Positions 12,773 to 57,819 are shown, counted from the whole stretch's first letter. The stretch: DNA of 57,819 nt, filler included, from Sphacelaria rigidula (GCA_964200075.2; 9 parts of 9 records of this genome joined end to end with filler, not necessarily neighbours in it), one strand, 5' to 3'. Program-made: numbers and translations. Notes: generated by a model from the letters alone, not told the origin.

Positions 12773-12872
12773 NNNNNNNNNNNNNNNNNNNNNNNNNNNN
12801 NNNNNNNNNNNNNNNNTTAATTAATTAANNNNNNNNNNNNNNNNNNNNNNNNNNNNNNNNNNNNNNNNNNNN

Positions 12873-13160
12873 GGGGGGGGGGGGGGGCGGGGGGGGGGCG
12901 TACTCATTTCTTGCTTGCCTCAGTCGTTTGACCATTGACCACGCACCCCTTCCGACACGGAGCACCGTTCCTACTCCTGATAGAGACACCCCCAACATTC
13001 TGCCGCTCATTACGTTTCTTCCATACATTACGCAAAAACCTTGTACATACCCTATCCCCGTCCTGTTTCGCCGTCTGTGGCCATCATCTATCTCCTCATA
13101 AAGCTATCGTTCTCTCGCTCATGTTTAATGCATCAAACGATTCCATGCCACCTTTGTTCA
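12873..13160 (-). mobile_element. 3' end of the oligo(C)-tailed LINE
   Basis: Reverse complement matches the end of the contig-9 LINE (about 57590-57819) and continues ..GCAAGAAATGAGTACG into a C-run. Confidence 0.85.
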
Positions 13161-16581: not shown

Positions 16582-18095
16582 TCTCTTCCCCCCCCCCGCC
16601 CCTCCCCCCCCGCACACACCTTCTCTGNNNNNNNNNNCTTCTGCGCCGAGTTTTTTGTCCAAAGGGACTACCTTTCCAACTTTTTTACTGTTGTTGCCCC
16701 CCCCCCCCCCCCCCCGCCCCCCCATCATTCCTTGTGTCTTTTGATGCGACACCCTCGACTACACAGCATAATCACTGATGTCTCGGCCTGGCTGTATTGT
16801 TCAACTGCCATTACACGGGTATGATGAGCGCCCCTGCGTACCCCGTTAAGCCAAAATGCTTCATCACCTTACCTCAATATCTCACCTGTTGTTATCATCG
16901 CCGCGGCATCTTCGGCCTGGTCATCGTACGTAGCTCCGGCTGGCCTGCCGCCTACTGCTGTTTTATCATTCTCCTTGGACGAATAGCAGCCCATTCAGAA
17001 GGTTCGAGTGTCTCGCTTCGAGGAACGTCTGTAAAGCTCAGTGACCTTCTAGTCTGTGCGTGTCTTTGATCGCCCGACCTTCAATTGAGCTTCGCACCCT
17101 TCAGTACGAACTGCACCGACTGTTGAAGATATTGGGAGAGAATCAGGCTGTGTAGTTAATTGAATAGGATGACGCTCCACCTCGAAAAGCGCTCGTGTAG
17201 ACAGCAGGTCGAAGGCCGTTGCGGTGGGTTGCAGGTAAAATTCTCTCCTCGTATGAGCAGATTCGTGGGGTGGGGTAACTGCAGTCCTTCAATCCTTGGT
17301 GCAAAAGGTGGGGGTGCTTCTTTGTAGTGCTTCCTGGAGGGGCAGCTATTAAAATGCAGAGTCAAGAGCGTTTGGGCCTCCCTAATATGTGCTGTGCACA
17401 GCAGTAGTGACAACGCTCTATGCTCAGCTACGCCTGCTGTTGACGCGACGTTCTTCTCGAAGTAAATCGGGACAGGAACGTTGCTCGCTCTCACAGTGCC
17501 GAACAAATGCAAGGAATTTTCCTACGATCAAGTAAGAATACTAACCAAGACTTGAAAAACGCGATTTACCGCTACTCCATGTCAACTGGTCAGACCCGTA
17601 CATCAGCGATGCAGAAATTGGACAAAAACACAGTCATTTTATATTGTAATTCATAATAATAGACTGATCATGACATGAAGGTGCGTTTTTTATCCTTTGA
17701 AAAAAATTGAGCACATAAATCAGTAGTGATCAAGCCAAAAACTTTGCGGCTTCGCAAAATAATCATTTGGCCAAGATTTGGCGATATCAGAAAAAATAAC
17801 ATTTGGAAAATGGTTGCTAGTACAAAATTAAATAATGGCTAAAAGTAATTGCAGTGCAACCGCGCTTGTTCTGCTCCACCCCAGCTTGGAAAACGGCAAC
17901 CACGCCAGCCTGCATCAACGTCTACCATCACCGACAACTCCTTGTCGTATCTGTTTGTGCTATATCCTCATATTTCGAATAGTGCTGAAGGTTACCGAAC
18001 GAGTTGGAGCAACGAAAAAATCCGTCCACCTCACGCGGGACAACTTGATTCACTACTGGAGCAGAACATAGCACGGATAACAGCTGACCATCAGA

Positions 18096-18275: not shown

Positions 18276-19308
18276 GTGTGAACGTCTGTACAACAGTACT
18301 GTGCTGTATACTGATACCGACGTACACGTACAGGACAAGGACAGTGTATCCACTATTATATACTGAACAGCGGCATAAAATTTACATCTCGACGTGTGTC
18401 GAAGGGCAACGCAACACTGCCGTAAGGTAGTAGATAGTGCACGGGCGGGGCAGTGGGATAGGGATTAATGCCCTGTAACGTGGGCACTCCTATCGCGTCT
18501 ATGCGCGCCGGGGAACCAGAGTCGTGTCTTAAACTTCGTGCTGTACAGGCCCAGCAGCACAGTAGTACGACTGACAGTCACGATCAGGTTTGGAAAATAG
18601 TGGTCCGAAGCGACCATCGACGTTTACGTTTCTCTTGCGTGGAGGCTGGCCAAGGCGGTGTCATTGATCAAGCATTTTCGACTCGACAACGTGTGGTGGA
18701 GTCGAATTGGTCATAGTTAGCTCGTAACTGATATATCCACGGTATTTTTGTTCTCAGGTGGCTTCTCGTTGAACGCACGCATCAAGTGATATCAACCATG
18801 AACATTTGTAGCCCAATGCCAGTTCGCTCTACTGGATCCCCAGTAGGGCTGACAGTCCCGGGTGCTCCTCGTGTGCGCACAACGCGTTTTCATTGAAATC
18901 GGTGCCACAGGCGCTGATTTGGGGTCTACCAAGGTTGCACTTCGCCTGGGGAATGCTGTGTACTGCCCTTGCCCGAGGGTTCTCGGTATACGTTGGGTTG
19001 GGGGTAGGGTTAGCGATACTTGTAAAATTGTGTCAACCATGGACATTTGTAGCCCAACGCCGATTAACTAGCCTTGTGTTATCGAGACACAAAAAACAAG
19101 GCATTAACCTTTTGGGAACCCTCCTCTCCTGTCCCCGGGCCAGACGCCTCATTATCAGAAACCCTGACAAAGAAGAAAATATGGAAACAGAAAAGACCGA
19201 CGGCAACCNNNNNNNNNNNNNNNNNNNNNNNNNNNNNNNNNNNNNNNNNNNNTTAATTAATTAANNNNNNNNNNNNNNNNNNNNNNNNNNNNNNNNNNNN
19301 NNNNNNNN

Positions 19309-24198: not shown

Positions 24199-26770
24199 GC
24201 CGCAAGCATCGAATCGGGGGCGCATTGACCGAAGTCGCACACACTGGTCTTTTTCGTCACCTTCGGAACCGTGTACGTTTCGTCGTCAAGGAGAGTGAGC
24301 CCGCAAGCTGCGTTTGTTTGTAAAGGTAGCAGCAGCAAAAAACAACAACTGCTTCTACTCCACTACTCACCCAGGTTGGGATGCTAGAGACTAATTCCAC
24401 CACAGCAACACCAAAAACATGTCTCGGGCGCCAACAGCCCGAGTAGCAAGATATAGCACGGAAGCTACTTTCCCTGCTACCGTGCGACCGCCTGCAAGTG
24501 TGGTCCGCCGTCCGATCGATCTTTTGCGTACTTTCATCATTTCGCACAACGCTGCCAATCACTCATCGCGAGGCTTCGCCATTCATCTCAGGGCAAGTTC
24601 CCTCATGCTATACCGCGGGATGAGTGCTTGCGGTGCGGGCAAGACCCTGTATAGAGGAATCACGCCTCCACCGACCATCCCAAACTTCGAATCCTGGCTG
24701 GTGTGTGCGAACGCGGCGATTTATGTACCATATGCTGCCGAGGCTGATGCTCACAACACCAGTGTCATGCGGCGCGAATCGAACATGCCGCCTCCGGTGG
24801 TGGGAGCAGAGTGGGGACGGGAAAAGGGCAGACGCCTCGTGGCCGCAAAACCTGCGCTCTCGTGCGCCGGTCGAGATTTTACCTACTTGGTGTACATTTC
24901 CAAACAAACAAGGGTGTAGGCTTTAGTACCAAGACACAGCAGGTGTAGCCGGAGAAACGGTGCGTCTCTGGGTACTGGATTGGGGTTGTGGAGGCGTGTT
25001 GGGTCATCGCGGAGATTTTTCGAGAACAACATCCGAAGACAAACTGGGTACACACCAGGCACCGAGATACACTGAATGAAATCGGACTCGTGCCTGATCG
25101 GCTCACATACCCCCTTTGAAAGGCAGCGGAATGACAAAATGATCTCGCAAACATGGCATGAGCTGTCTGCTCGTGGTCTTGTTCCGGTCTCCACTGCCAG
25201 GACGCTCCCCGTGTAGCCCGACGGAGAAGAAGGCACCCGCGAACCTTTTTGGTTCTTCGTAAATTCACGCCTCCGTAAAATGCGTACCCACTGATTTGGG
25301 TGGGCGAGTATCGACCCCGAGCTGTATGGAGGCCACGTTTTTCGCGCCGGCCAAGAACCATTTTCTTCACGTGTCGCATAGTGACGACGACCGCTACAGA
25401 GCGGTCTCACCACTCGAGACGAAGAGTAGTCTCTAAATTTAAAGCACATAGCGCGATCACGAGCTATTCATCATGAAGGTCCCACAACGAGCAGGATTTC
25501 TGCAGTTGTACAAGTATTTCATATTGTGTGCCGCAAATTCTGACTAACGATTCGGATATCATGGAGATTTCATGCCTTTTCGTGGGACGAAACGGGCGAG
25601 TTTCGCCTTGCAGGATTGATAACAAGGACAAAAAACGTTGGGAANNNNNNNNNNNNNNNNNNNNNNNNNNNNNNNNNNNNNNNNNNNNTTAATTAATTAA
25701 NNNNNNNNNNNNNNNNNNNNNNNNNNNNNNNNNNNNNNNNNNNNTCGATCATCTGGCGCTGCATGGCCATTTGTTTCGTGACACTTTTAGCTGGTTTTTT
25801 GGGGGGGCTATCGTATAAAGTGCCATGCAGTACTGCATTTATGATACAATGGTGGGGCATTCGTGTTCTATGTTTTATCCGCTACATGCAGTTGGGTTTA
25901 CTACCATTATTGGCGTGTTTAGGGTCCACGTACGTACAGCCTTGGTGGTCGGCTATGAGGCGCTGCCCACACGTTTTCACTTCCTTGTACTTGTTTTGCC
26001 TGGCTACCATGGGATGCGATCTGGAAGGTCCCGGCGCCGAACAGTCGATAGACCCGTTTTGGCCAGCTCTGAGAAGTGGATTTTGTTCTTGAAGAATTCA
26101 CGGCACCTGTGGGGGATGTGTTCGCGGAAACGCCGTCACCACTCAGTGGCGGCACTGTGCAGGGGGCGGGCGTCGTTTACATTACGCGCGGAGAAGGGGT
26201 ACAAAATATTCATCGACGGTAACATATCCCAAAAGTAAGTGCCACCCTGGTTACAGGTATGATGCTGTGAGGTTTCATGGGCGTCTTCAAGGCGTTTGTA
26301 GTCCCTGCGGTGACCCGTGCCGTGGTGGGCTGGTTTGTGTCGATAAAATCAAATCATTCACGTGGCAATCATTGGGAGGACTTGTGATAGTGGTGGGAGG
26401 CGTGTCTGCAAGTGGCTGCTCATCACTGTGTTTCAGATGGGCACGGGGCTGCGGTTTATAGCACTGTAATATGATTTTCATGTTTCAACTGTAGGGCGAG
26501 GACATCAAGAGATCTGGACTGAAGCAGTTGTTGCGACCGGAACAAGTTTTCCTATCTCCGCGAGACGAAGTTTTCAGCGAGAATATATGAGACATTCGGA
26601 CCTCCGAAGCGTCGTGTGTGTAGAAGTATTTGGGCCAACACGGAAATTCAGGCGGTGTACTGTACAATGTTATGTGGTGAAATGGAAAAAATATGCCGCA
26701 TAAAACCTCACGTGTATTGTAAAACATGACAATATACTGATAGGCTGGAGTATGTGGATGAGTTTTTTGA

Positions 26771-30890: not shown

Positions 30891-32422
30891 CAAAGTCGGA
30901 TGGTTTTCGGTGGCGCTTTTCGGCCGTAACAGAATCGAGCACAGTCTCTTTTATTGCATGCAGAGAGCTAAGGAAATCTGGGTGAGCTTGGAAAGGTGAG
31001 AGCGATAGCGATCGAAATCGAACTAAAGCGCTATTACTTCCTGGTACAAAATCCGATTCTACACACGTACGTCCAACCAAACTATACCATCCACTTCAAC
31101 TGCCGCTGCTGACGCGTCAGTCTTGCCAGTGTTTGTATTGTGGTTGGGCCACGAGGTGATACGGGCATCACTCTCCGAGCGCAAGTACAGTCGGGGGTGG
31201 CACTGAGCCAGCGGCCGATCGCAATAAATAACTGCAGTAAAGTAGAATGATTCCAGCTTGCGGCACACGGATCATTGAGTCCGGATCAGTACTGCATCAT
31301 AAAACAAAACAAAGGCTCACATTCACGTGCAGAGAGGTGCTCTTGACTTGCTTGCGGGCGAGATGTCTCCGAGTGGTGACTGATAGCTTTGTTATTAGGC
31401 TTGGCTACTGGTTAGCTAAAACCGAAGTTGCTAGGTGGTGGAAGTTGTGATGGGCCGGGGCTCCGACTGAGCACGTCTGATTGGAACACGACACCAATAT
31501 GCGAATGGAATAATATCTACTGTACATGCCATGTGTACTTCGAAACGCCTACTACATATACAGTCGGTATCCACCGCAACATTCCCCTCCCTTGATTTGT
31601 GCACGCTGCTCATGCAAGACGAGGGAAGACACAACTCATTTTACTCCGGGGGTGATTCACTCAAGTTTCTATGCCATCAGCCTCATATCACGTCAAAGAC
31701 GAAAAAACCGCAGAATTTCGGGGCTAGAGGTGACCGCGGGTAAAACTCGTCATACAAAAAGATGGGCAAAACCTGTTATTCAGGAGAAAAAAATCTTCAT
31801 CGTTTGGGGGAAAAATCTCACACGCCCTGTCAGATCATAAGCGAGTGCTTTCGCATATGCTATGCCGTCCGAGGATCCCAGTTACACTGGGAACAGAAAC
31901 CACCGAAAATAGGTGGTGACTATTTTCCGATGGTAACGGCGCTTAGACACCCGTGATTGGTTACACCAATCCTGAGTAGTGTAGGACTCGAAAAAAGAGC
32001 TAACCCTGGGATTATCATCCGTGCCCTATCGAGGTCCAGTCCTCATCGCAGCAGAGTCGAGCGGTTTGTGTGTGAGACANNNNNNNNNNNNNNNNNNNNN
32101 NNNNNNNNNNNNNNNNNNNNNNNTTAATTAATTAANNNNNNNNNNNNNNNNNNNNNNNNNNNNNNNNNNNNNNNNNNNNGCTTATGAGCCTCTTTTTTCG
32201 TGCAACCAAATATCCCCCCCCCCCCATCGTAGGATGACTCACTGTTACGCTGTGTGCGAAGAGGTGAAAACGGTGGGCGATATGAGCGGCCGTCATTAGT
32301 GCTCCTGCATAGTGCCGGGGAGACTGAGCGAATGAGTTTCGTCAGTCGTTCCGCGGGTGTTGAAATGGTCTTCGTGTGTGCTTTCGCGGCGCCGAAGACG
32401 TAAAAACGCCGGCGTTGGCACG

Positions 32423-37680: not shown

Positions 37681-38452
37681 ACTTAGCCTCAGCACCGAGT
37701 TAAAAGGAAATGGCACTCTGGCGAATGCATTTTCGATACGTCCAAAGGTGATGATATGTGAAGTGTGTGAATTCAGCGTGCCAATCGTGTGCCAACAGTG
37801 TTGTAAGCTCTGTTTGACGGTGCGGTAAAACGACAAACGCACTAGTGTAACCACCACAACTATGCTGCAGCTGATTTCCAGAAAGGTGCTAGGTTCCGCG
37901 CTTTTGTCCACACGAATGTTTGCTGCCTTACTTATCCGAGTTCATGTCTGCGGGACAAACTAAGACAAGGAAACCTGAACATGTGCCCCTCTTCTGTTTC
38001 TTTTCGGTAAGGAAGAAATGCGAAACCAGTTACGCCGGTACGGTAAACTACATCATGTACGCACGCGAGTGAGTAACGAGAGCAATCCAACTAAATTTAG
38101 AGTAATCCTGTTTGCTTGCCAACAGGAGACAGTAAGTTAGAAACTACACAGCTCGGATATATAAAGGGGCATACCTCGCAGTCGTGTGTTGTATTCCAGT
38201 CTTGAATAGCTTGCGCAAGATGTCCCTTCCTCGTCAACAAACACGACGCATGCTTCGCTACTGCCGCCAACCATGAGCTCCGCATGAACGACGACGGAGT
38301 CGGTCGTGGCGACCGCGCGCCCGGGCAAAATTCCGTTCCTTTTGAGCCCCATCGCTTTGCACGATAGGGTAGTTTCGGGGAGCGGGACGGGGGATGTTCA
38401 GCGCATAGCCCGAACACGGAAAGCGCTCGACTGGTGAGCCATGCTGCGTTAG

Positions 38453-38514
38453 GGGGGGGGGGGCGTACTCATTTGTTGCTTGCCTTAGTCGTTTGACCAT
38501 TGACCACGCATCCC
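38453..38514 (-). mobile_element. 3' tip of the oligo(C)-tailed LINE
   Basis: G-run followed by CGTACTCATTTGTTGCTTGCCTTAGTCGTTTGACCATTGACCACGCATCCC. Confidence 0.85.
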
Positions 38515-39149
38515 NNNNNNNNNNNNNNNNNNNNNNNNNNNNNNNNNNNNNNNNNNNNTTAATTAATTAANNNNNNNNNNNNNNNNNNNNNNNNNNNNNN
38601 NNNNNNNNNNNNNNGAAAATGGGAAATCGTCAAGTGGAAACCCCACTCAAATCACAAGTACTTGGGGGGATTTTACGGCGTGCATAATCAGGGGATGAAC
38701 GAGATCTCCGGTCTGTTCGTGCTTTTGGTCGGTGACACTTTTTTGGCTCATTTTGGGGGGTCAGGCGCACCCATAACTGTCTCACCGCTTCGTTTTTTTT
38801 CAATTTACGTGGCGAAGTTCAGTGACATTGCTTTTTGTCCCATGCATATATATTTTTGTGCTCTGATTACGTGCTCGAATTGCTGGCGCTAGGCAGCTAG
38901 AATTTACCGCGATTTTGAATAGATGTGAAGCCAAATGGCGTAATTTTCTTCCCTCCGGCGGGGCCCCCTCACCAGCTGGGGGGGGGGGCGTTTAGGCGAC
39001 TCCGCCGCGTTGCCTTACCAGGCAACGCTGGCAGAGTCGCGAGGCGCCTTCGCCGCCAGTTATCCAATTTCAACTGGTGGTTGTAACTGGTCATAGTTTC
39101 CTGGAAGCAGTTACATGATTAGTCTCACCAGTTCAGAACTCTAAGTAAG

Positions 39150-39548
39150 ATACACAGAATTGCCCCTATGGGCAATCAAATAGGGAGCAAAAGTCATATA
39201 GTGGCAGAATGTGAACTGTACAAGGAGAAACGGGGATATGCTAGAGTGGGAAATGCGGGAAGTGAACAAAGGTGGCGTGAAACCGTTCGATGCATTAGAC
39301 AGCAGCGAGAAAACTATGGCTATACTAGGGGATAGATGGTGGCCACAGACTGCAGAAGAGGCCGGAGATAAGATGAGCAAAAGGTTTTCGTGCAATATAT
39401 GGAAAAACCATAATGAGCACCTAAATGTGGGAGACGTCTCCATCACGAGTAGGAACGGTGCTCCCTCTCGAAAGGAATGCGTGGTCAATGGTCAAATGAC
39501 TCAGCAAGCAACAAATGAGTACGCCCCCCTCCCCTTCCCCCCCAGCCC
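39150..39548 (+). mobile_element. 3' end of the oligo(C)-tailed LINE
   Basis: Homologous to about 57480-57819 (GDRWWPQTA..RNGAPSRK). Ends GCAACAAATGAGTACGCCCCCC. Confidence 0.88.
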
Positions 39549-40824
39549 GAAGAATTTTGTTCTGCCTCGAGTTAAATGTAGTATAGGGTCTCGATATAAC
39601 CAGGTAGTGTATGTGTAGACTGTTGATTCTGGGTGATCTGTTAGGCTGGTGGTTCGTGAACCCGTCTCAAAACGAATCCGTCATCATCCATGTCCCCCGC
39701 TTCTTCTCCCCTCACCGCGTCAAGCACTGATTGCCACGGGCTAGCTCTAAATACTTGGATACACTCAGCAGCGCTCAATAAACACTCGTCAGTGCCCACG
39801 AAGTGAGTGATGCTACGGTAGGGGTTCAACGTTTCAGCCAAACGTTGTCTAAGGTTGCACACTATTAACCCAGATGTTCCTCATGGAGGCGCTCCTCAAC
39901 TTGGGAGCTTTTTGGATGTTTTATGCACCCCTGCCGTGGCACTGCCCAAGTCAAGTGGAAAATCAGGATTCCGGAACAGTGACTGTGCGGATACGTCACC
40001 TTTTGTCCTACCCCGCCCTTCCCCCCCGAGCCCGGTCCGGCGAACACCAGGCGTGCTCCGTCTCGGCGTCGTAGGGATGCGAGGTCAATGTTCATATGAC
40101 TACGGCATGCAAGATCATCAGTACACCCCCCCCCTTCCCGTTCTTCCCAGAGATTCTCCCTACGCGTTGTGTGGTTGATTGATTAATTCATTGTCGCAGT
40201 TTAACTGACCCCCCAGGGGTCCAGCCGTTGTCTCACGATAGACGCACCCTGAAAAAACGAAACTGCAACACGCTCTGAAGAAAAGAAAAAACAGGGGGAA
40301 AATGCAAAAAAAAAAAAGGCGGAACAGAACGACATCGCTGTGTGTGTGCGTTTTTTGCTTTCATGTTACATAACCTAACTCCCCGTATGAGCATGCCGAA
40401 ACAAGTGCGGAAAGATTGCAGTTTACGTGGAAACTGCCCCACCTTGAGAGGAAATGGTGCCGGATTTTGTTTCCTTCACACACGTGGGCGATCCCGTCCC
40501 GTTTCACCCCCCGAACGGGTCTGACGGTGAGCCTCATACCGAGTCCATCAGCATGGGTACGGAGGGCACACGCGCTTGAGTTTCACGCGAGTTTTAGAAA
40601 ATGAGCACCGAGAGGGACGGAAGTCGAAGGGCTAGAGGGGTGCTGATCGATTGCTTCATGACAAGGTGCAAGGCAAGGACCCGGCGCGAGGTGAATTGAT
40701 ATCTTGAAATCAGGGACTTGCCCTGAGGACGACGGGGGATGGCAGAACGTACACCGAAAACCACGAAGTACGAAACTACCCCCTCCCACCGACCCGCCTA
40801 TTCCCTATTTATCGGCATGTCAAG

Positions 40825-40921
40825 GTGACATCTTCGCGGAAGTGATCAGCCAGGGGACGTACGAACATACACCGGAGGAACTTGTGTACGGTGCGAAGGT
40901 CTGCTGGCGGAACAGCGCAAA
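40825..40921 (+). CDS. NOS: Nitric oxide synthase oxygenase domain, exon A
   Basis: [31 protein letters not shown](K) matches the NOS motif EI..TGTY.(H/L)T..EL..GAK.AWRN. Donor AA|GTAAGG, phase 2. The acceptor position (AAG) is less certain. Confidence 0.9.
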
Positions 40922-41477
40922 GTAAGGATACAGGGAAGAGTGGGGGGGGGGGATTGAGACTGTAATAATCTTACATACCGTTGTCATAATACTACTGACC
41001 TCGTATCTCTGCAAAGCCGGGACGGAGCACGCCGGGTGTTCGGCGTGTCGCATGAAGGGTGATCGACCTCGTGCTAAGATTGTTCGGCCCGGAGCGTACG
41101 GATTGTATTGCATTCGGATGGCAGCCTACAATGAGGTGCTTCATTTTCTGGTATCGCCAGTTCCAGAGACAACCACAGCTTACACACCGCCTCATGGGTG
41201 TCTCACGATGTAAACGCTATGTAGAATGATCATCCCCTTTGCGCGGAAGTGAGGTTCCCCATCCCACACAATATGGTCCATCTCGACCACCATCATGGTG
41301 ACAGCAAAAAAAACGCAAGGGCGAAGAAAAAGGGAGTGACTTTGTTGCCTAGCTTACGCAGTGTGAGGCATGTTTTACAGCGTCATTGCCAACCGACGCC
41401 ATCCCCACAGGAGTACGTCCCTACAACGCGGGAACGGAGTACGCCGGGTTTTCGCCGGTGAAGGAGGGGGGGGGGGG

Positions 41478-41541
41478 CGTACTCATTTGTTGCTTGCCTT
41501 AGTCGTTTGACCATTGACCACGCATCCCTTTCGAGACGGAG
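41478..41541 (-). mobile_element. 5'-truncated LINE insertion with ~21-bp TSD ending in a G-tract
   Basis: CGGTGAAGGA(G)12 at 41456-41477 and CGGTGAAGGA(G)11 at 41542-41562 flank 64 nt of LINE 3' end. Confidence 0.9.
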
Positions 41542-42427
41542 CGGTGAAGGAGGGGGGGGGGGTATGTTTCGATGGGAAGGAGAAGGAGAGTAAAGGGCCC
41601 TTGCTCAACCTGAACGTTCCCGACATAGCTGATGGAGGCTTGTAGAGACTCTGAATAAAGTGGAAGACCTCGAGGGAGGACGGTGATCATCTTGATAGTT
41701 TCTGGCGGTGACTTGGCCTTTCATGTTCCCCTATGGTTCGCCTTAGATCTCCTAACGCTCAGCCATGCGATCGTGTTGCTTTCGAAGGAGAGTGGAGCAT
41801 TCATTGGGCCATTCGTGCACACATCAATAGAAAGTAGTTTTGCATTTCTGCGCAGTATTCGTCGCCTCCTCACCCCGTCTTGCTTCGTCGATACACTCAC
41901 AAATGGTTGTACAACGCCATGCAGCGATGAGAGACAGCGTTAATAAACGTGTCTGTATGCAGAGTAGATATGGATGACAAATAGATCCGTTGTTCTGCTG
42001 CTTGTTCGTAGCTGCCAATGGCAGAGGCGCGTCTGTACGGTAAAGCAACACTACGCTCACGTAAAGTTGAGGTGACATTACATGCAATGGAGGATCGGCG
42101 TATGTTCATGCTAGAGAAGATGCTCGCGTACATCACAGCAGTTGCGATTAACGGAGTGCACCACGTGCAAAACACGCCGTACGCTCGTCTTATCTTGAAA
42201 GCTGTTCGGATTCCACGAAAACGACTTTCTCTGTACACGCTCAACATTCACCTGTCCATGTCGACAAAACAAAGTGCTTTTACTTCAAATGACAAGGGTT
42301 CCAAGGGAGTGTCGGATGGCGTATACCCAATATTGTTGTATTTCGAAAAGTGGAGATCCGACCTATGCCACGGCGCAGCAGCCAGCCCAGTGCCATCGTT
42401 CTCCTCTCTAAAGCCCATACAAGTCAT

Positions 42428-42683
42428 GAGTGATGCTACGGTAGGGGTGCACAAATATTGTCTGAAGTTAGAATTGTTAGAAGCCCTTTATCTAATGCAA
42501 AACATGACCTATGAAAGTTGTGAAAGTACGCCAGGATTACTACTCCAATGTGCTGGGGATATCCCGAATGAATTTGCAAACGGGGATGCCCTGATCCATA
42601 TTTTTGTGCATCTAGAATCGGTGGGAGCCCCTGAGCTAGATATAATATTGCGAAAAAAGTGCACTCCTACCGTAGCATTGCTC
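42428..42683. mobile_element. MITE with GAG..CTC termini and 4-bp TSD (TCAT), inside the NOS intron
   Basis: TIRs GAGTGATGCTACGGTAGGGGTGCAC / GTGCACTCCTACCGTAGCATTGCTC, with TCAT on both sides. Confidence 0.85.
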
Positions 42684-43022
42684 TCATTGTGACTGACCTA
42701 GGCTGGTGATGTGCGACGTTTTAATATACCAAAATATTGGGCATACTCTGCCCGACACGCTCTTGAAGGATTCCTCTCTAAAATCGACCACAGGCGATAT
42801 CCGGCGATCCGAGACGGAGTCGCTGTCAAAGGGTCGAAATATTCGTAGCGATATATACATTTGGAGCGCGAATATATATCCCATACTACACGATGTGTCT
42901 CCGAGTATGAATGCATGGCACGCTTGTTTCTTTTTCACACACCTTGAAGGTGTATTTGCGACGACTAACGACTTCATCTTGAATGTCTTAACCTTCTTCG
43001 ACTGTACACACACCTCTGACAG

Positions 43023-43176
43023 GTGCATCGGGAGGATCGCGTGGAACACGCTAACGGTGAGGGACAAACGCCACGTGACGAATGTGGACGAGATGTTTGC
43101 GGAGTGCATCGAGCACGAGAGGTTGGCCACCGCGGACGGTAGCATCAAGTCGGTCATGACGGTGTTTCCGCAAAAG
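43023..43176 (+). CDS. NOS: Nitric oxide synthase oxygenase domain, exon B (heme-ligating Cys)
   Basis: CAG|G TGC ATC GGG AGG.. gives CIGRIAWNTLTVRDKRHVTNVDEMFAECIEHERLATADGSIKSVMTVFPQK, matching NOS CIGRI.W..L.V.D.R......MF..I..H...AT..G.I.S.IT.FPQ. Phase completes exon A. Donor AAG|GTGCAT. Confidence 0.93.
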
Positions 43177-44579
43177 GTGCATGCAATACCGTTGTTTGGA
43201 AAATTAAAAATAAAATAAAAACATAACTTGTTCTCGCGACCAGGTGTTCTTTACACTACTCCCTGCTGAAACGATGCTCCACTTTGTTTGGCGTCGTGTC
43301 TGCTGTTCCACGATATAATGCTTGGAACACCTGCAGTGGTGCTGCTGTGGCAGCGGCATCAGCAGCATCAAGCCGTTGTTTCGTTGTGCCGGCGTGTGTC
43401 GTCGCAAAACAGTTGTTTCTGGGAGGGATCTTGGGATATCAAGCATACGACAAGGTGAATACTTCAAGAAACCTTATTTTTGGTACTCACCATAAATCTG
43501 CCAACACATGCATACATGAAAGGATAGATCCGCGACGGACACCGGTGGGAATCTTCCCCTTTTATATGTGGTGTTACCCACATCACCCACCCTACCCATC
43601 TACCCCCGTTGTATGAGCCTCTTCGTACGTTCTTTTGGTGAAAATCGACTTGCTTGTCGGGGTAACCATTTTTTTCGCCGCCTAGGGGGTGAGAATGTGT
43701 ACACCATACAAGTGTCCGGTACCCGTGCCAACAATCTTCACGGAAGACGTTTCCCTCGAGTCTGTGAATTCTTCTTCGAAGTGATCTACCAGTTTGTCTG
43801 GTCCCCCATAATTTTTGTGACCTTTTGTCCCCCGCTTCACCATAACCGTCGTTTTGGTGAGAGCGGGAATTTGAACGCGGGACCTTCATAAAGTGCACGG
43901 GTTATCTCACCGGCGTTGCCTATGTGAAAAGGTGCTCCCTCGACAAAACCTTATGGGAGTGTTCCCCTTTTATGTGGTGGTACCTAGACGTCTGTGTGTA
44001 CGGCGTGGGTTCAACTAATACCTTCCGAAAAAATGTACCCTGTCCGTATCAAATTTGGCATCAATACTCGAGATAGTGAGAAGGTCTCGTTGGAATCAAT
44101 GTACTGTCTGCGATCGAGCTGTATCTGCGGTCAGAAACAGGTGCTTTTTTTTTTTCTGTTGACAGCACTGATGTTCAAGACCTGTCTAAGCGGGGGAATG
44201 TGTTTGTCCTCCGCAACCCCCTGGAGGAGTCACGGGCTTCGCGGTAATGAGTCATGATACGGCAAGGGTCGCACATTTGGGCCCAGATCTCTCTCTTATC
44301 GAGGGGATCCTATAGTTAAAAGCTACACAAGAATATGGATCAGGATATTGCATGTTTCAAAATCAAAATCAACTGGGGATGTATATCACTAGCCCATTGG
44401 ATTGCTATCATATATTTCATAAGCCGTTTTTCTGGATGAGATAAAGAGCTCCTAAAAATTCAAACTTTTGAGAATATTTGTGCACCCGTACCGCAAAACC
44501 AATTCAATGCCCTCCTTACCCTCAAAATATCCAACGATCTCGCTCCCGCACGAAACTCGCATTCAAATGCTACGCCCCC

Positions 44580-44949
44580 CCGACGTCTCGGAGACCCGCG
44601 CCTAGACACCGGGATTAAGAGATGTATCCTGATGAACGTGATCGTACCAAATAAGGAATATCCAGGAGAAGTATGAGAGGGAAACGCGAAGTTGGTGAAG
44701 AGGTTAGAGCCGTACAGATGGCAGCAGCTAAGAAAATACTTGAAACTCGAAAACGACGAGTAATACAGTTTTGAGAGCAGAGTTGGGAATGTACTCACTT
44801 AAAACAGAGATTTGAGGAAATTGCAATGGCAGTATAGCGTAAAGAACATGCAAAGAAAGGGATGGCCAGCTATAGTTGATAGGGCTGTATGGAGGAAACG
44901 TACGATAGGGCAGGCTGGAGTAAGGTGGGATAGAGAATTCGAAAAAGTG
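44580..44949 (+). mobile_element. Internal LINE fragment
   Basis: Aligns by eye with 56815-57180 (NVIVP..EY.G.VWEGN.KLVK.LE). Confidence 0.8.
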
Positions 44950-45134
44950 NNNNNNNNNNNNNNNNNNNNNNNNNNNNNNNNNNNNNNNNNNNNTTAATTA
45001 ATTAANNNNNNNNNNNNNNNNNNNNNNNNNNNNNNNNNNNNNNNNNNNNGCGAGTCGCATGAGGGTGCGCTGCATCCTGCGTAGATTGTTCGGCCCGAAG
45101 CCTATTGATTATCTTGCATTTGGATGACAGCCTA

Positions 45135-45390
45135 AGACACTTTCTACGATAGCCCCCCCCCCCTCCAAAAGTGCACGGTCTTGGGAGGCAAAACCTTCAC
45201 GTACATCGAAATGGGAAAAGCCGAGCACAACGAGCAGCTGGGAATTCCCATGTTTGGGTTCGTTCTAGCCAATGTCGCCAATATGAGGCGCTTCATGCCG
45301 CCTGGACCCAAACACCAGGCGCTGTGTGGCCCTTTTTTCGTGATATTTTTGGGCTGGTTTTTTGGGGGGGGGCTATCGTAGAAAGTGTCT
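45135..45390. mobile_element. 256-bp MITE with TA duplication, inserted in a SINE-like copy
   Basis: TIRs AGACACTTTCTACGATAGCCCCCCC / GGGGGGGCTATCGTAGAAAGTGTCT. The uninterrupted host site GCAGCC-TA-CAATGAG is seen at 41121-41135. Confidence 0.9.
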
Positions 45391-45435
45391 TACAATGAGT
45401 TGCTTTATTTTCTGATATCGCCACTTCTGGAGACA

Positions 45436-48400
45436 TGTACAGTAGTCCATCTACAGTACACATGCAACAAGTAGACATGCGGGGGGTCCTGGATTTGGTT
45501 GGAGGATGACTATTGGATGCGTAACATATCGTGATCGTGAAGCAAGCCCAAGAAGCTTACTTCCGGTTTAATGAAGACAACTGTTTGTAAAACTGCTCTG
45601 TCTTGAAGTCTCGGAAGCCCTGCTGGGGAGGAAGCCTTTGGAGCAAGAACTTAGATCTTGTTCTGATCCCAGACAAGTCTACAGTGAACGTTTACTCAAG
45701 AAACTTGTGGTTTCTGAACAGCGTCGCTGAACCCTAAAAAAAGCGAGGACGCTCGTTGGACAACACGGGGGTAGTGCGACGGAGCACGGAGTGCAGGAAG
45801 CGTTCGAAAGATGGCGCGAGCGAAAGTGAGCAGGGAGTCTAAATCTGACAAGGAGGGGGACGGCGCAGAGGTGAAGTTCACTGTAACGAATTTGATTGCG
45901 GGGCGATCGCTCAAGGCGCCTGAATATGGGCGCTTGTTCAGTGAGCAAGCTTCGCGACGGTTTCTGCAGAAATATCAGGAGTACGAACAAGCCGTTCTGC
46001 GACGAAACAAGACTCGAACTGTGGAGAGCGCACCGTTGGCCATGGAGGAGCTAGTGCCTCGGCATGTACAAGGTTATTTGTTGGACACTCTTTTTGATGG
46101 CACTGAGTTTTCTCACGCCCGGATTAGGGAAGGGATCGCACGGCATGCGAAATGCTGGGTAGGAATGGAAATTGATCCAAATGAGGCCGCAGCCGGTGTG
46201 AAAAAAGCACTCGCTGCACAATCCGATTCAACTGCCATGCGTCGAGTGGAAGGACAGTGGAGTGCCTTGCAAGAATATTTCAAGGAGAATGAGGGTTCAG
46301 AGCGTGTTTTCCGCGAAACGGACCGTACCTATTAACCAGGCCCGGCACACATCATCACTAGAGGTGTGATTGCTGGCCTGACCCCTCCGGAATTCAAACA
46401 TAAAGTCCAAAACAAACTGCAAATGACGGGGGGGGTGGAAGGAGCAACCGAAACTTGTGTACGATGTCGCTCTTGAGGTGGCGGAACTGTGGCGAACTGT
46501 CGGGGAGGTTGACAAGCAGCGCAGATCCGCTCCACAGAACAAGGAGGTGGGTTCGCAAGGACAGAAGAAACTGTCGACGGCAGCTAGCGCCGCAGCCGCG
46601 ACGGTTGTATCCGGTGATAGCGGATCGAAATCCAGACAATCTCGCAGACCCGGCCCTGATTACGCAGTATGTTTCGAATATGGGGACAAAGGTCATTTTA
46701 GGAAAGACTGTGAGAAGAAAAACATGCCAGCAGCTACCGGAGGTGGGGATAGTGGACACGTAAAGCCGCAGCAACAACAACAGCAAACGGCGCAAGCTCC
46801 GCGGGGCGGGAGCCAGAATCCTCCCCCTACCCGGGCTGTTTTTCCAGGGGATGGTCGTCAAGGGGGCACTAACGATGCTGGTAGTACGTTGCGACCCGTG
46901 CCGACTGTTCCGGCTTCTATAGTACAGCCTCCGCCGTCAACAGAAACAGTTCCGCAACGGACATCGGCGGCAGTGCCGGCGTGGCGGGGCTTACACACTG
47001 CTTCCGAGGTAGCAGAGCTGGAGGCCGAGGGTTTGGACGTGGAAACTAGGCAGCAATGTTGCCGAGCTGATCTATCTGTTCCAGGTTCCGCCGTAGAGAA
47101 AGTCTGTCCGGTCAAGGCTGTGTTAGACTCTGGAGCTAGAACAACCATTATGTCTGAACGGGTGGCGACCCGGTTGAGAAACGCGTTTCCTGGAGTATCA
47201 ATCGTCACATCAATGGCACGTGGACACCCTGTACGACTGGCTGACGGTAACGTAAAAACCATGCACTCCAAAACGTGTCTGGTTCGTACGGCACTCCACA
47301 CGAGCTGGGGGTCGGCGGTGCTTGAGCCCTGCCGGTATGCGATAATGCCCGGCGCTGATGATGTGGTTATTTTTCGGAGCAAAACTTTGGCAAAAATCGG
47401 CATCAATATCTACAATGATCTGGGCGCATGCGCGCAAGCAGAACACCCTTATTTGCGGGGTATCGAGACGCCTGAGTTCCGCGAGTGCAGGCGTGGGAGT
47501 CTAGCGGTGGAGGAGCTCCAGGAGACGACTGGTCACGAGGAACCGGTGGACTCCTCTGTCGAGCGACTGGTGTCACGGGATCTGGATATGTTTATGCCAC
47601 CAGAGCAAGAGCTTGTTGAGCGCAAAGTGGCGCTTGAGGACGCGGTACAAGCTGCGGCGGATAATGGCATGTCGGAGAACGGGGTGAGCAAGCTCCGAGA
47701 AATTGTCGGCCGTCGGACCAATGTTTTTCGGCGAGCGTTGCGAGGTGACCCGCCTGCTCGCGTGGAGCCTTCGCATGTACGCTTCAAACCGGGGGCTAAA
47801 GCAGTCAAGGCGAGCCCGAGAACATACTCTCCAGTGAAGAAGAGCTGGTTGGCAGGGTGCATGGCTACGCTGGTGGTGCTGAGGTTGGAGTTCCGCAACA
47901 TCCAGGCGGTATGGGCAAGCGCAGTTATGGCTGCGCCCAAGAAGGGCAGCTATTGTCTGGTGAGTGATTACAGAGCAGTCAACCGGCAGCTCGAGAAGGT
48001 TCCCAGTATTATGCCGAATCATGAGAGGGAAATGGCCGATTTGTTGGGTGCATCGTGTTTTGGGAAGCTTGAAATGCTACAGGGGTACTGGTAGATGCCG
48101 CTAGCGGCTGAAGCCCAGGAATTTTTCACCATTGCGTCTCCCGACGGACCTTTCACCCCCACGAGGGTGCCGCAAGGCGTGCTCAACGCTAACGGATATT
48201 TTCAACAGATACTGATGGGACTGTTGGCTGGACCCGACTGCAAGGTATGGGTTGGTGATATTTTGTGGTGGGGGAAAGATGAGGATGACTTGCTGCGCAC
48301 GCTGGACGCGATTTTGGGCCGATTGGAGGACGTTGGTCTGTTTGCTGCTGGGCACAAGTGCATGTTTTATGATACGCAGATCACGTGGTGTGGGAAGGTT

Positions 48401-51285
48401 TTTTCAGGTGGACAGGTTGCTCATGATCGCGACCGATTGACCGGATTAGCCAATATGCGTCGCCCACGTACGGCGGGTGAGCTGATGCAGTTTTTGCAGG
48501 CCGCCAATTGGCTGCGAACATCTCTACCGCGTTTGGCAGAAACGATGGAGCCGCTGCGTGAGCTGTTGGAGGAACATCTGCGGAAACACGTCCGCCGCAC
48601 TAGGCGAGTGGCGTCCAACCGGATATCGAAGATTCGGCGTGGACATTTCAGCGGGGTCAGGCGTGGCATGCTGCTCAAGATTTGGTGGCGCATGCTGTCG
48701 CTTTGTCGTATCCGAAGGAGGCGTATGAGGTGCTGATGTTTCCAGATGGATCGAATCTACATTGGGGCAGTTTTTCTACGCAGGTGCCTGCCGCTGAGTT
48801 GGATGGGCTGCTGGCGGTGGAAGACATGAGACACGAGCCGATGGGTTTCTCAATGGGACTTTTCGTGGGGCATAAGTTCGACGGGCTACGGTGAATAAGG
48901 AAGGCTACGCCATTGTGAGTACATTCTGAAGGTTAGAGTATTTGCTGTGGGGCGGAGTGCATATTATAACTGATCATCGTAATTTGGCATACATTCTTCA
49001 TCCTGAGGCGTGCGTGGCATCGTTGTCTAAGACTGCTGCCCAGAGACTCGAGCAATGGAAGGCTGTGCTCGGGCAGTATGATTCCACTATCAGGCACATT
49101 TCTGGGGAACGGAACTGCTGGGGAGACTTGCTATCAAGGTGGATGAATGTGTCTGTCCGTGCTCTGGCGGTATTCGCGAGTGGTGAGCTGGATGACACAC
49201 CACCGTCAAAGGACGACATTCGAGCAGCTCAAGAGCGGGCTCGCGCAGGGTTCGGGGTGATGGTTGATGGAGCTACCTCGTTTACTGCCGCTTTGGGCGC
49301 GTTCCGAAAGACGGTGAGGGCTTGCTTTGCGTGCACGTCGCAGATAAGCATGTGTTGTGGATCCCGCAGCAAGACAAAGAATTGAAAACACGTGTGATGG
49401 TGTGTGCCCGCATGAAGGGGGCGGGCCACCGCGGGGTTGTGGCCATATTGCAACGATTACAGGAATACTGCTGTTGGTACCAGCTGGAAGCTCACGTTAC
49501 CGATTTCGTGAAAAAATGCTTACACTGCATGGATTCGAAAGCTGGGGAGATGGTCCCGTGACCGCTAGGGGAAACCGCTCATGGTACACGGCCCGGTGAG
49601 GTGGTGCACTTCGATTATCTATACGTTGGTGAGAGTGATCCCTTGGGCAAGAGCGGTTTGGATGAAGGCGGTGGATACGAGTACATTTCAGTGATGATGG
49701 AACATCTGAGTAGTTTCGTGTGGTTGGAACCTACGGAATCTTGCACGGCTGCCTTGACGGTGCAGCATTTGTTGACGTAGTGCAAAGCTTTAGGCCCACC
49801 GGAGGTTTGGGTTAGTCCGCGTCGCATTTCAAAAACCGTGTGATGCGAGCGCTAGAAAAGGCACTGAAACTGGACAAGAGGTTCACAATCGCCAACTCGC
49901 CGTCGTCCAACGGGACGTGTGAGCGGATGATGCGAGAAGTTGTCCGTACTCTGAAGGCAATGCTCCAAGAGGAGCGGAGCGATGTTCGTGACTAGGTGGG
50001 ACTGGTGCCTGCGGTGCAGTGGGCGTTGAATACGGCATTCCGCGAGCGATATGCCAGTACCCCCTACCATGTAATGTTTGGACGCGCGCCGCGCACGAGA
50101 TTTTCGACACTGGCCTCGTCGACCGGCGGCGACTGGCGACTTGATGTGCTGGATGAAGACAGGCTGCGGCAGAAGGTGGCGTCAGTTGTTGAGGCGCAAC
50201 AAGAGCTGCATAAGGAGGTGGCACAGCGCGTGGAGAAGACCCGTGAGTTACAGCGACGTGTTGCCAGTAGGGGACAGTTGCCCAATTTTATGGTTGGTGA
50301 TAATGTGTTGGCGGCGAGAGTTAAGCGTTCCGGCACAACGCCTAAACTCGTTAGTACGTGGACAGGAGCGTGGAAAATCGTGGCAGCGGGGCATCAGCAT
50401 GTGTACGATATTCAGAATATCGTCAACGGAAAGGTGAAGGACGCGCATGTCGCCCGATGGTACTGAGCGGACAAGGAGCTGCAGGTCACTGCAGATCTGA
50501 AGGGAGTGTTCCAGTATGCGTTTGCTCAAGGAGAGTTCGAAATGGAGGCGATTATTGACTTGCCCAAGGCTCAAGACGACGATGGGTTCGTTGTACACGT
50601 TGAATGGGTAGGTTTCGGCAAGGACGAAAGCTCGTGGGAGCCACTGGAAACCATTTTTGAAGGAGCCTCGCAATTTGTACGTTCTGAATTGCGTAAGTTG
50701 TGAAAAAAAAGAAGGTGCGGGCGCGTTTGCTGGCTAAGTATGGGCTCAAGCTCTGATTAATTGGGTTTCAAGCTGTGATTGGTTGTTGGCGTAGTTCGTG
50801 GATTCTACTATGCAATTTGGTGTTCGATGAGTGTACCGCTTGGTTATTGTTTGCCTAACATGTTGGAGTAGCTCGTGCTGGTGTTTTAGGATTATGCTAG
50901 GGGGGGCATCGTGATTTGACCTGATGCGGTCTGATATTGAATGCTTGTCTCTGGTTGACGTCGTAGGGTACTGTCAGTGTCTACTGTTTTGTCAAATTCG
51001 CTTTTTACTTCGAGTAGTGCAAAGTTTTGGAGGGTGCTGTAGAGTAGTCCACCTATAGAATACATGCAACATGTAGATATGCGGGGGATCCTGGATTCGG
51101 TTAGGGGATGACTATTGGGTACGTACCGTATCGTGTTCGCAAGGAAAGCCTATGAAGCTTACTTCCAGTTTAATGACGACAATTGTTTGTAAAACTGCTC
51201 TGTTTTGAAGTCTCTGGAGCCCTGTTGGGGAGGAAGCCTTTGGAGCAAGCACTTAGATCTTGCTCTGATCCCAGACAAGTCTACA
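45436..51285 (+). mobile_element. Full-length decayed Ty3/Gypsy element with chromodomain (LTRs 45436-45683 and 51038-51285; TSD GACA)
   Basis: Two 248-bp TG..CA LTRs, roughly 87% identical by eye. Domain order: gag with knuckle CFEYGDKGHFRKDC, protease AVLDSGA, RT (DYRAVN, PQGVLNA, VWVGD), RNase H (TDHRNL), integrase (GHRG..C.HC), chromodomain (VEWVGF..SSWEP). Confidence 0.97.
45811..50755 (+). pseudogene. gag-pol of the Gypsy element
   Basis: ORFs 45811-46335, 46457-48094, 48095-48736, 48942-49561, 49996-50466 and 50506-50703 are consecutive pieces broken by stops and frameshifts. Confidence 0.93.
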
Positions 51286-52249
51286 GACAGCCACGGCTTA
51301 TACACTGCCTCATGGATGCGTCACCATGAGGGGGGGGGGTGTACTCATGATCATGCATGCCATAGTCATCAGACCATTGAGATCNNNNNNNNNNNNNNNN
51401 NNNNNNNNNNNNNNNNNNNNNNNNNNNNTTAATTAATTAANNNNNNNNNNNNNNNNNNNNNNNNNNNNNNNNNNNNNNNNNNNNCTTGTATATGTAGGCA
51501 AGAAGTGGGGTCAGACTAGAAGTGGTCGCCAGGGGCGACCAGGACCGTGGGGGATGTTGGACCGTCCTATATTAGGCTCTTCCTGGCATCACCCCGAGTC
51601 GTCTAGTTACGTCGGCATTACAGGGTCCTTGGTAGTCTGGTCCTTCCGGACCGTTCCCACCTTGTCCCTGCTGGCGCTGGGTCTTCATTTTTCATATATG
51701 TGTGGCATCAGTCTCTGATATGTCACTGCAAAGAGGTATCCTCCACAATGGTAAGTGTTTCTCAACACCCAGTAAAGAAGATGTGACGCATTCGACTGCC
51801 GGCTACTATTAAAGTATCTCAAAAGCACATATGAATTAAACTCCCAAAAACATGTTTTTCCCGAATGCCCGCCACGAGCCTTCACATATGGACTCGAGGC
51901 GCATCACAGGGGCGGCTGATGTGGAGATCGCCATTTGGGCATGTGCGGAGAGATTTCCTTGTATGACGTATAACCTAGTGAACGGCTGTTACAGGGGTAG
52001 TTCCCTGGAGCCCCGAAACTCCCATATCTGTATAGCGGGATCTGGGAGCCCAATGTAACGGGGATCTTCCCAGCTAACTGCTGGCTATCCCTGGGGATCA
52101 CTTCTTCGACTCTGTCTTCGGGCTTACTCGCTCGCGCTCGTCGAGCTTTCCCGAGTGATCTACTTGCCTCAACCCCACGACTTACGGTCAACCCTTGACC
52201 ACATAACACGAGGAAAATCATCGGCCACCCTTCGACGGTTCCTACCGTC

Positions 52250-56344: not shown

Positions 56345-57819
56345 GAAGGTTAGACAGGGAAATATCGAAGTATTTTTATATGTTAAAAGGAGTTGCACAA
56401 GGATGTACGTTATCACCCACTTTATTCAAGGTATTCATTAATGACTTGATACTAGCAATAGAAGCAGCAAAGCAAGAAGTCAAGGTGGGTAAAGATGTGA
56501 TATCAGGTTTGACGTTCGCAGATGATTTCGTAGGGATTTCAGGAACAGCAGAAGGACTGCAAAAGCAAACAGAAAAAACGCTAGAACACTAGGAAGTGGA
56601 GAGTAACAGCGAATGCCAACAAATGCGCGGTACTCGTCTGTAACGAAGATAAGAAAAATCCGGTAGAGTCCAAGTGAAAGTGAGGAGAAGAGGAACTGCC
56701 GATTGTAGACCAGTTTGCGTACCTTGGCGTAGAGATATCAAAACACTGTTCTTGGGATGCACACGTGAACAAAGTAATAGAAAAGGGTAAGGCACAGATA
56801 GGCAGGATGTACGTGACCCTCAGAGATTCGCACGTAGACACTAGGAGTAAGAGATTTTTCCTGATAAACGTGATCGTACCAAAGCTGGAATATGCAGGAA
56901 AAGTATGGGAGGGGAACGTGAAATTAGTGAAGAAGTTGGAAACAGTGCAGATGGCAGCAGCTAAGAAGATACTTGGATGCTCGAAAACGACGAGTGATAC
57001 AGCACTGATAGCAGAGCTGGGAATGTACCCACTTGAAACAGAGACATGAAGAAATTGAGATGACAATATAGCTTGAAGAACATGCAGAGAAAGAGACTGC
57101 CAGCTATAGTTGATAAGGCTGTATGGAAGAAAAGTACGAAAGGGCATGCCATAAGGTGGGATAGAGAAGTCGAGAAAGTATCGAAGGAGATAGGAGGAAA
57201 CCAAGACGAAATACTGTCCAGAGGTGCAGGCGCGGGGTACAAGACAAAAGTAAGAGACACGATAGGAATAAGGGGAAAAGGAGTGCTCAGACGTAAGGTA
57301 GACGAGCGAAAACACCTGGAGATATACGGGGGGTTGAAAGAGGGGATCGCAATGAAAACATATTTGCATGGCCCCATGGACACTGCGAAAAATTTGAAAA
57401 TGCGATGTCGGGTGGGGGACCTGGACATGCCAGAAAGAAGAAAGAGACTTACCAGTGGTAGAGTGGAGGAGGAGGTGAATGGTCAGAACTGCCTCTGTGG
57501 CAGAGCAACAGAGAGCAGAAGTCATATTATGGCCCAGTGTGAACTATACAAGGAGGAACGGGACGCGCTAGAGGGGGAAATGCGGGACGCGAACGAAGGT
57601 GGCATGCAATCGTTTGATGCATTAGGCAGTAGCGAGAAAACGATGGTTATATCAGGAGATAGATGGTGGCCACAGACGGCGAAACAGGACGGGAATAATA
57701 TATGTAAACGGTTTTTGTGCAATGTATGGAAGAAACGTAATGAGCGCCGGAATGTTGAGGGTGTCTCTATTAGGAGTAGGAACGGTGCTCCGTCTCGAAA
57801 GGGATGCGTGGTCAATGGT
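56345..57819 (+). mobile_element. 5'-truncated LINE: RT C-terminal half and Cys/His C-terminal motif
   Basis: GVAQGCTLSPTLFKVFINDL, FADD, YLG and CLCGRATESRSHIMAQC. Runs into the same 3' sequence as the oligo(C)-tailed copies. Confidence 0.93.

Follow-up and report, generated by a model that had tools for sequence, protein, structure and literature searches.

The enzymatic source of arginine-dependent nitric oxide (NO) in photosynthetic eukaryotes has long been debated, and we know of no nitric oxide synthase (NOS) in land plants. Among the closest described systems, the cyanobacterial enzyme syNOS has been characterized both biochemically and structurally, as set out in the syNOS portions of PMC8728061 and PMC12922734; the structural account in the latter describes a C2 domain, a globin acting as an NO dioxygenase, and activation by Ca2+. 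A passage of the same source names the NOS of Tribonema minus as the eukaryotic sequence most similar to syNOS. Globin-NOS proteins have been described in diatoms, including Pseudo-nitzschia multistriata and Skeletonema costatum (in parts of PMC4648414 and PMC8728061), and the relevant portion of Di Dato et al. (PMC4648414) presents diatom transcripts that are similar to cyanobacterial NOS, with the globin sometimes absent. The occurrence of NOS in brown algae is stated in part of the review PMC8728061.

A full-text literature search returned no paper characterizing a brown-algal NOS, although the lists of Jeandroz 2016 and Santolini 2017/2019 lay beyond its reach and may name one. The same literature yielded no biochemical data for any brown-algal NOS, and no study of the Nemacystus decipiens gene model g4883.t1, which proves to be the nearest named relative of the locus described here. 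Even so, the family and its fusion to a globin are already on record, as is its occurrence in ochrophytes, one brown-algal gene model among them. A preliminary description of this DNA had presented the locus as pointing to an arginine-dependent NO pathway that had yet to be characterized in brown algae, and that novelty was overstated, given a full-length, orthologue-like Nemacystus model in EukProt, the mention of brown-algal NOS in a passage of PMC8728061, and the known diatom globin-NOS proteins and syNOS.

Here we report that a brown-alga-type genome carries, transcribes and correctly splices a syNOS-like NOS gene. We describe two exons which are, with high probability, internal exons of an intron-rich nuclear NOS gene from a brown alga or an organism very closely related to one, belonging to the syNOS-like 'globin-NOS' subfamily. 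Expression is observed for these two exons; what the remaining coding sequence encodes, that it is intact and which reaction the enzyme catalyses are inferred.

Layout of the locus and its exon borders

The window, by which we mean the whole stretch of DNA that was analysed, is 57,819 bases long and is not one genome stretch; eight identical linkers, each consisting of 44 N, TTAATTAATTAA and 44 N, join nine pieces of about 6.3 kb each. The NOS locus is confined to the piece at 38615-44949, so that a search for the rest of the gene spans just 2.2 kb on the 5' side of exon 1 and 1.8 kb on the 3' side of exon 2. The features of this piece are as follows.

38615..40824, plus strand: upstream intron, as far as visible; no NOS-like coding segment by tblastn; dispersed repeats at 39155-39543 and 40027-40247
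40825..40921, plus strand: NOS exon 1; phase 1 start, ends 2 bases into a Lys codon, with the proximal Trp inside
40922..43022, plus strand: GT-AG spliceosomal intron of 2101 nt (GTAAGG...GACAG); about half high-copy repeat, at least about 640 nt single copy
42428..42683, no strand assigned: MITE-like element inside the intron; 256 nt, with 25-nt terminal inverted repeats that are 88% complementary
43023..43176, plus strand: NOS exon 2; haem-thiolate Cys and the following helix (CIGRIAWNTL...VMTVFPQK), with GT at 43177
43177..44949, plus strand: downstream intron, as far as visible; no NOS-like coding segment by tblastn

When the Nemacystus protein (P0003) and a diatom protein (P0004) were compared with the whole window by tblastn (E up to 10, word size 2), only the two exons were recovered; that no further exon turned up is explained by the piece being only about 6.3 kb long and the other pieces unrelated.

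The borders can be read directly. An AG at 40823-40824 immediately precedes exon 1, which ends in GCA AA at 40921, with GTAAGG immediately after. The intron closes with GACAG at 43022, and the G at 43023 completes AA|G as Lys, after which TGC encodes Cys; exon 2 ends in CAA AAG at 43176, with GTGCAT next. Joined by their coordinates, the two exons give a reading of 249 nt that translates into 83 residues with no stop. The GT-AG borders, the matching phase (AA|G) and the stop-free product proposed in the preliminary description are therefore all borne out by direct reading, and assembled contigs join 40921 to 43023. The contig match begins at 40822, placing three extra bases (AAG, 40822-40824) ahead of exon 1. 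Most simply, these are the end of the upstream exon, which resembles the acceptor by chance, and 40825 thus stays the likely start of exon 1.

The intron had been described as filled with transposable elements, which fits about half of it. In a DNA control run (X2), depth reaches 1e5 to 3e6 in the bins at 40947-41582 and 42431-42854, whereas the bins at 41583-42218 are single copy, at a depth of about 31. Matches at 76-100% identity to parts of the intron (40933-41202, 41463-41542 and 42439-42516) and of the flanks are found in other pieces of the window, among them 64 nt at 100% and 75-80 nt at 91-93%. The MITE-like element, whose bin at 42431-42642 has an X2 depth of 6.5e5, lies inside a weaker inverted pair of 50 nt (42302-42351 and 42716-42765), and an inverted copy of it, 81% identical, lies at 44415-44493. 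A claim that LINE, SINE and MITE families are common to this intron and the other contigs can accordingly be kept in part: the repeats do recur and a MITE-like element is visible, but the LINE and SINE labels are unproven, since a Pfam scan of nine open reading frames (ORFs) of the NOS piece, those of the intron included, gave no match and a search for tRNA-like genes found none. A neighbouring piece holds an LTR-retroelement ORF (46427-48091) with weak matches to gag-aspartyl protease. With short exons lying between multi-kb, repeat-laden introns, this NOS gene may be missed or fragmented by gene finders.

Transcription and splicing of the two exons

Of twelve public sequencing runs listed, from four studies and mostly under one organism label, 11 contain part of the stretch. 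Three RNA-like runs from one study (X6, X7 and X8) were compared with X2. None of the runs is on record as RNA; that X6-X8, like X9, are RNA is an automated guess, for X6-X8 backed by their exon-only cover, and their assembled contigs, all from that single study, carry no strand, level or transcript ends.

A 1356-nt contig of X7 (record 21) aligns at its positions 204-303 with 40822-40921 and at 304-457 with 43023-43176, and a 478-nt contig of X8 (record 25) carries the same 40921|43023 joint with 0 differing letters; over 40822-40921 both contigs match with 0 other letters. In X6, a 1084-nt contig (record 15) has exon 2 at its positions 539-692, and the depth of 3.95 in the exon-1 bin is the value expected of a 100-nt exon at the depth of that contig. 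Among the listed contig pieces, the joint is thus present in two of the three RNA-like runs, and exon 2 is covered in all three. Contigs of X2 instead cross the exon borders with the intron retained, as does record 6 at 43021-43363. The single-copy intron bins at 41583-42218 have a depth of 0 in X6-X8 against 30.8 in X2, and the single-copy flank bins at 43279-43914 a depth of 0 against 35-70, although missing RNA cover, taken alone, proves nothing.

Because the X7 and X8 contigs join 40921 to 43023, the predicted junction exists in transcripts. Both exons are transcribed, their splicing falls exactly at 40921|43023, and the splice site was predicted to the base. The preliminary description had proposed looking for reads across this junction, and two assembled contigs span it. 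The X7 contig further includes 203 nt on the 5' side of exon 1 and 899 nt past 43176, neither of which lies on this piece, showing that the transcript runs at least 203 nt upstream and at least 899 nt downstream into exons outside the 6.3-kb piece. One feature is not accounted for by the spliced form. Over 40523-40734 and exon 1, runs X7 and X8, unlike X6, have some 5 units of additional depth, for which intron retention or another transcript is a possible explanation.

Haem pocket, relatives and subfamily

Both exons match the Pfam NO_synthase profile (PF02898) above its curated cut-off of 22.7 bits. The open frame at 40695-40922, which holds exon 1, covers profile positions 33-64 (E 7.4e-8, 32.2 bits) and exon 2 covers positions 65-115 (E 5.6e-16, 58.9 bits), so that the two matches adjoin exactly at 64|65. 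They are likewise contiguous in the solved syNOS chain 9q05, where exon 2 aligns with residues 539-588 (E 3.4e-13, 51.7 bits) as its best solved match and exon 1 with residues 507-538 as its second best, behind 1mjt. Exon 2 aligns to the haem Cys of both the syNOS and the iNOS chains. The visible part amounts to 83 residues of a probable 1500-1900, with positions 1-32 and 116-362 of PF02898 (about 360 residues) outside the piece, along with the residues that would bind Arg, pterin and flavin. The assignment to the haem-binding segment of the NOS oxygenase, for which the preliminary description had suggested just such a Pfam search, agrees with both the profile and the 9q05 matches.

These 83 residues are the proximal haem pocket of the oxygenase domain, including the haem-stacking Trp and the thiolate Cys. 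In an alignment of 39 rows, the window's own among them, the proximal Trp is found in all 39 and the haem Cys in 38, and the earlier reading of both residues as intact is upheld. The residue before the Cys had been singled out as an oddity, a Lys in place of the usual Arg. It is in fact Lys in 27 of the 39 rows, Arg in 10 and another residue in two (again counting the window), and the same Lys is present in syNOS, an active enzyme of solved structure; with Lys in the majority and in syNOS, it is a subfamily trait and no anomaly.

Relatives were gathered by word-indexed and exhaustive protein searches with exon 2, together with cluster look-ups. The nearest named sequence is the Nemacystus decipiens (brown alga) protein (EukProt EP00752 g4883.t1, our P0003, 1903 aa). 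Other named relatives are diatom clusters from Thalassiosira minuscula and Detonula confervacea and a Tribonema minus protein (P0181) annotated as nitric oxide synthase; more distant ones come from Phalansterium, Paulinella, a choanoflagellate, Spirosoma and cyanobacteria. Across the 83 residues, identity falls from 80% in Nemacystus through 75% in Tribonema and 71-72.5% in the diatom clusters to 57-59% in cyanobacteria and Spirosoma. A scan of metagenomes added three loci, two at 79% (L001 and L002) and one at 54% (L003), none of them from this organism; in L001 and L002 the syNOS-type gene is almost uninterrupted, and neither served to extend the present locus.

A quick maximum-likelihood tree was built from 36 oxygenase domains picked from the matches, the short fragments P0049, P0096 and P0148 having been dropped. 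The window is sister to the Nemacystus protein (SH-aLRT 92), a placement that rests on 83 columns, as the window row fills 22% of the tree columns. Together with the diatom proteins P0004, P0008 and P0160, these two form a five-row ochrophyte clade with support of 100. The phylogeny that the preliminary description had called for therefore sets the window within the ochrophytes and beside a brown alga.

The domain layout of the relatives bears on the subfamily. The Nemacystus protein contains Globin (433-524), NO_synthase (549-909), Flavodoxin_1, FAD_binding_1 and NAD_binding_1 domains, and is collinear with a 1481-aa syNOS-type cyanobacterial protein over 1348 columns at 39% identity. Globin was also found in P0004, and in P0008 at a score just below the Pfam cut-off (21.4 bits against 22). 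Among 28 long matches that were scanned, those closest to the window mostly have their oxygenase domain after residue ~330, many with a detectable globin, and lower ranks go to proteins in which that domain is N-terminal, as in the animal-like layout. The tree groups the window with the long-N-terminus/globin relatives; by this comparison the window gene belongs to the syNOS-like globin-NOS subfamily, its own globin and diflavin reductase being predicted from relatives only.

If the full protein resembles that of Nemacystus and syNOS, it would consist of an N-terminal extension, a globin, the NOS oxygenase, an FMN flavodoxin and an FAD/NADPH reductase. Electrons would then pass from NADPH to FAD, to FMN and on to the oxygenase haem, which would oxidize L-arginine to citrulline and NO, and the fused globin would oxidize part of that NO to nitrate.

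Host genome, function and comparison with known systems

The intron is spliced out in the X7 and X8 contigs and present in the X2 DNA contigs. A spliceosomal intron marks the gene as eukaryotic, and the earlier argument against bacterial contamination is thereby sustained, as is the attribution to the host, given that other pieces of the window share the intron repeats (76-100% identity). A brown-algal host had been suggested conditionally, and both coding sequences agree with it: the nearest protein to the NOS exons is that of Nemacystus, and the only named relatives among 12 matches to the retroelement ORF at 46427-48091 are from the brown algae Cladosiphon okamuranus and Nemacystus decipiens (39-40% identity). 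The repeats, the retroelement ORF and the protein ranking together support a nuclear genome that is brown-algal or very close to it, and argue against a diatom or bacterial contaminant.

The locus might instead come from another eukaryote sampled together with the main organism, for instance a diatom epiphyte or a different stramenopile. X1, one of the runs containing the locus, is labelled an algae metagenome, and diatom globin-NOS proteins are 71-72.5% identical to the exons. We consider this origin very improbable, as the repeats of the intron and flanks recur in other pieces (64 nt at 100%, 75-80 nt at 91-93%), the closest protein is brown-algal and not diatom, the locus is found in runs of one organism label from two studies, and the single-copy parts of the piece are uniform, with an X2 depth of 21-37. 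The diatom relatives are moreover nearly intron-free (P0004, on a 5364-nt contig, and the metagenome loci L001 and L002), unlike this locus.

A second copy is also present in the sequence data. Over exon 2, a variant contig of X2 (record 6) differs from the window at 12 letters, with a further 9 gap letters, across 334 nt; within the exon five differences are listed, four of them synonymous at third positions and one changing Thr to Ala. The ORF P0001, on a 730-nt contig, continues past the exon borders; it matches exon 2 at 96% identity and has the same Thr-to-Ala change. This copy, about 96% identical, may be an allele, a paralogue or a sister strain, and either copy may be the functional one.

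The existence of two such copies is among the observations that would fit a transcribed pseudogene or truncated paralogue, in which the exons are relics of a NOS gene otherwise broken or lost and the RNA contigs come from transcripts without function. The piece shows just two exons, high-copy repeats invade the locus, and X7 and X8 show unspliced-looking depth on the 5' side of exon 1. Missing exons are, however, to be expected of a piece of only 6.3 kb, and the contigs reach 203 nt and 899 nt past the two exons. The 83 codons are stop-free, 80% identical to Nemacystus and retain both catalytic residues; the differences between the copies are mostly synonymous, which is a weak argument with just five listed, too few for a dN/dS comparison. 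On balance we regard a pseudogene as improbable.

The gene may be intact and yet its product not mainly a producer of NO. Its globin could, as has been proposed for syNOS, turn most of the NO into nitrate, so that the enzyme would serve to recycle nitrogen from arginine to nitrate. In the Nemacystus relative the globin lies ahead of the oxygenase, collinear with the syNOS-type cyanobacterial proteins; the syNOS globin is treated as an NO dioxygenase in part of PMC12922734, and a portion of bioRxiv 10.1101/2020.10.08.331702 gives the fraction of NO oxidized as ~70%. Against this, the globin of the window gene lies outside the visible piece, and the literature searched holds no assay of any ochrophyte enzyme. 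We regard this as a serious possibility but lean against it, and it refines the syNOS-like globin-NOS explanation rather than offering a true alternative. Even where only part of the NO becomes nitrate by way of the globin, the enzyme may serve the mobilization of arginine nitrogen as much as NO signalling.

For the syNOS-like globin-NOS gene, a wider proposal can be made, though tentatively and with just short of an even chance of being right: brown macroalgae may keep and express a cyanobacterial-type, probably Ca2+-gated C2-globin-NOS, vertically inherited within the ochrophytes, as the missing arginine-dependent source of NO and nitrate in wound, defence or nitrogen-storage physiology. Across the relatives, identity falls from brown alga to xanthophyte to diatom to bacteria. 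If correct, this would be the first C2-globin-NOS documented in a complex multicellular photosynthetic lineage. For cloning and assays in a multicellular alga, the locus offers a definite candidate.

Comparison with known systems runs from the more distant to the nearest. Animal and Ostreococcus-type NOS (iNOS, 4nos and 1nsi) share the Pfam domain and the Trp/Cys haem ligation with the window gene, but exon 2 matches iNOS 4nos more weakly than syNOS 9q05 (38.8 bits against 51.7). Six proteins with an N-terminal oxygenase (P0048, P0065, P0099, P0111, P0133 and P0151) show 43-57% identity across the 83 residues, and the tree places them on other branches than the window; a scan of these six for Globin detected none, and four have Arg before the Cys, with Lys in P0099 and P0133.

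Diatom globin-NOS (P0004, P0008 and P0338) and Tribonema P0181 share the ochrophyte clade and the architecture of globin, oxygenase and reductase, at 71-75% identity. The diatom genes lie on contigs barely longer than their coding sequence (5364 nt for P0004), suggesting that they are transcripts or intron-poor, whereas the window locus has multi-kb, repeat-laden introns.

With syNOS of Synechococcus sp. PCC 7335 (C2-globin-NOSoxy-Fld-FNR; 9q05 and related entries), the window gene shares the contiguous matches of its two exons and the Lys before the Cys. In contrast to the window gene, syNOS is bacterial and intron-free, and its cyanobacterial relatives P0262 and P0253 are 57-59% identical over the 83 residues. 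The nearest system is Nemacystus g4883.t1, itself a predicted gene model. Of the 83 residues 17 differ, which indicates a different species, while the two share 80% identity and the haem-site motif WRNSAKC-IGRIAW.

Composition of the window and its repeats

The window consists of nine separate pieces, each about 6.3 kb long, which are joined by eight artificial linkers built as N44 - TTAATTAATTAA - N44. Distances and neighbourhoods carry no meaning across these linkers.

6337-6436, 12773-12872, 19209-19308, 25645-25744, 32080-32179, 38515-38614, 44950-45049, 51385-51484: artificial linkers
1472-1481, 16628-16637: two further 10-N gaps
41463-41542: short repeat flanked by G-runs, found further at 39460-39538, 38451-38514, 12889-12963 and 57787-57819
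45775-50700, + strand: run of LTR-retrotransposon-like open reading frames (ORFs), within piece 45050-51384

The short repeat at 41463-41542, which lies in the intron of the nitric oxide synthase (NOS) gene, is a very high-copy element: it has the top depth of its piece in the DNA sequencing run X2 (about 3.4 million summed word depth), with numerous loose ends at 41466 and 41542. Within the retrotransposon-like run, a 555-aa ORF (46427-48091) has weak gag-aspartyl protease matches. Among 12 database hits to this ORF, the only named relatives come from two brown algae, Cladosiphon okamuranus and Nemacystus decipiens, and share 39-40% identity with it. The ORFs that follow it look, by eye, like pol pieces and had no match in Pfam.

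Exon 2 and the region upstream of exon 1

Exon 2 and its downstream flank (43021-43363) occur in X2 in a second version, differing by 12 substitutions and 9 gap letters, which may be either an allele or a paralogue. The ORF P0001, on a 730-nt contig, agrees with this second version (Thr to Ala).

42687-43250, - strand: 188-codon open frame, antisense across exon 2
40523-40734: depth in X7 and X8 just upstream of exon 1

The antisense frame, with no Pfam match, is most likely a by-product of coding-strand codon usage. Depth at 40523-40734 is about 5 in X7 and X8 and 0 in X6 (three runs guessed to be RNA, from one study), and a NOS-like coding frame is absent there; intron retention, an alternative start and an unrelated transcript are each possible sources of this signal.

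Metagenome genes of the syNOS type

Two microbial-mat metagenome contigs carry nearly uninterrupted genes resembling syNOS, the globin-NOS of Synechococcus sp. PCC 7335.

L001, 3197-5866: syNOS-type gene
L002, 6180-8422: syNOS-type gene

These genes share 79% identity with exon 2, and about 45% across 620-660 residues with the Nemacystus NOS gene model P0003.
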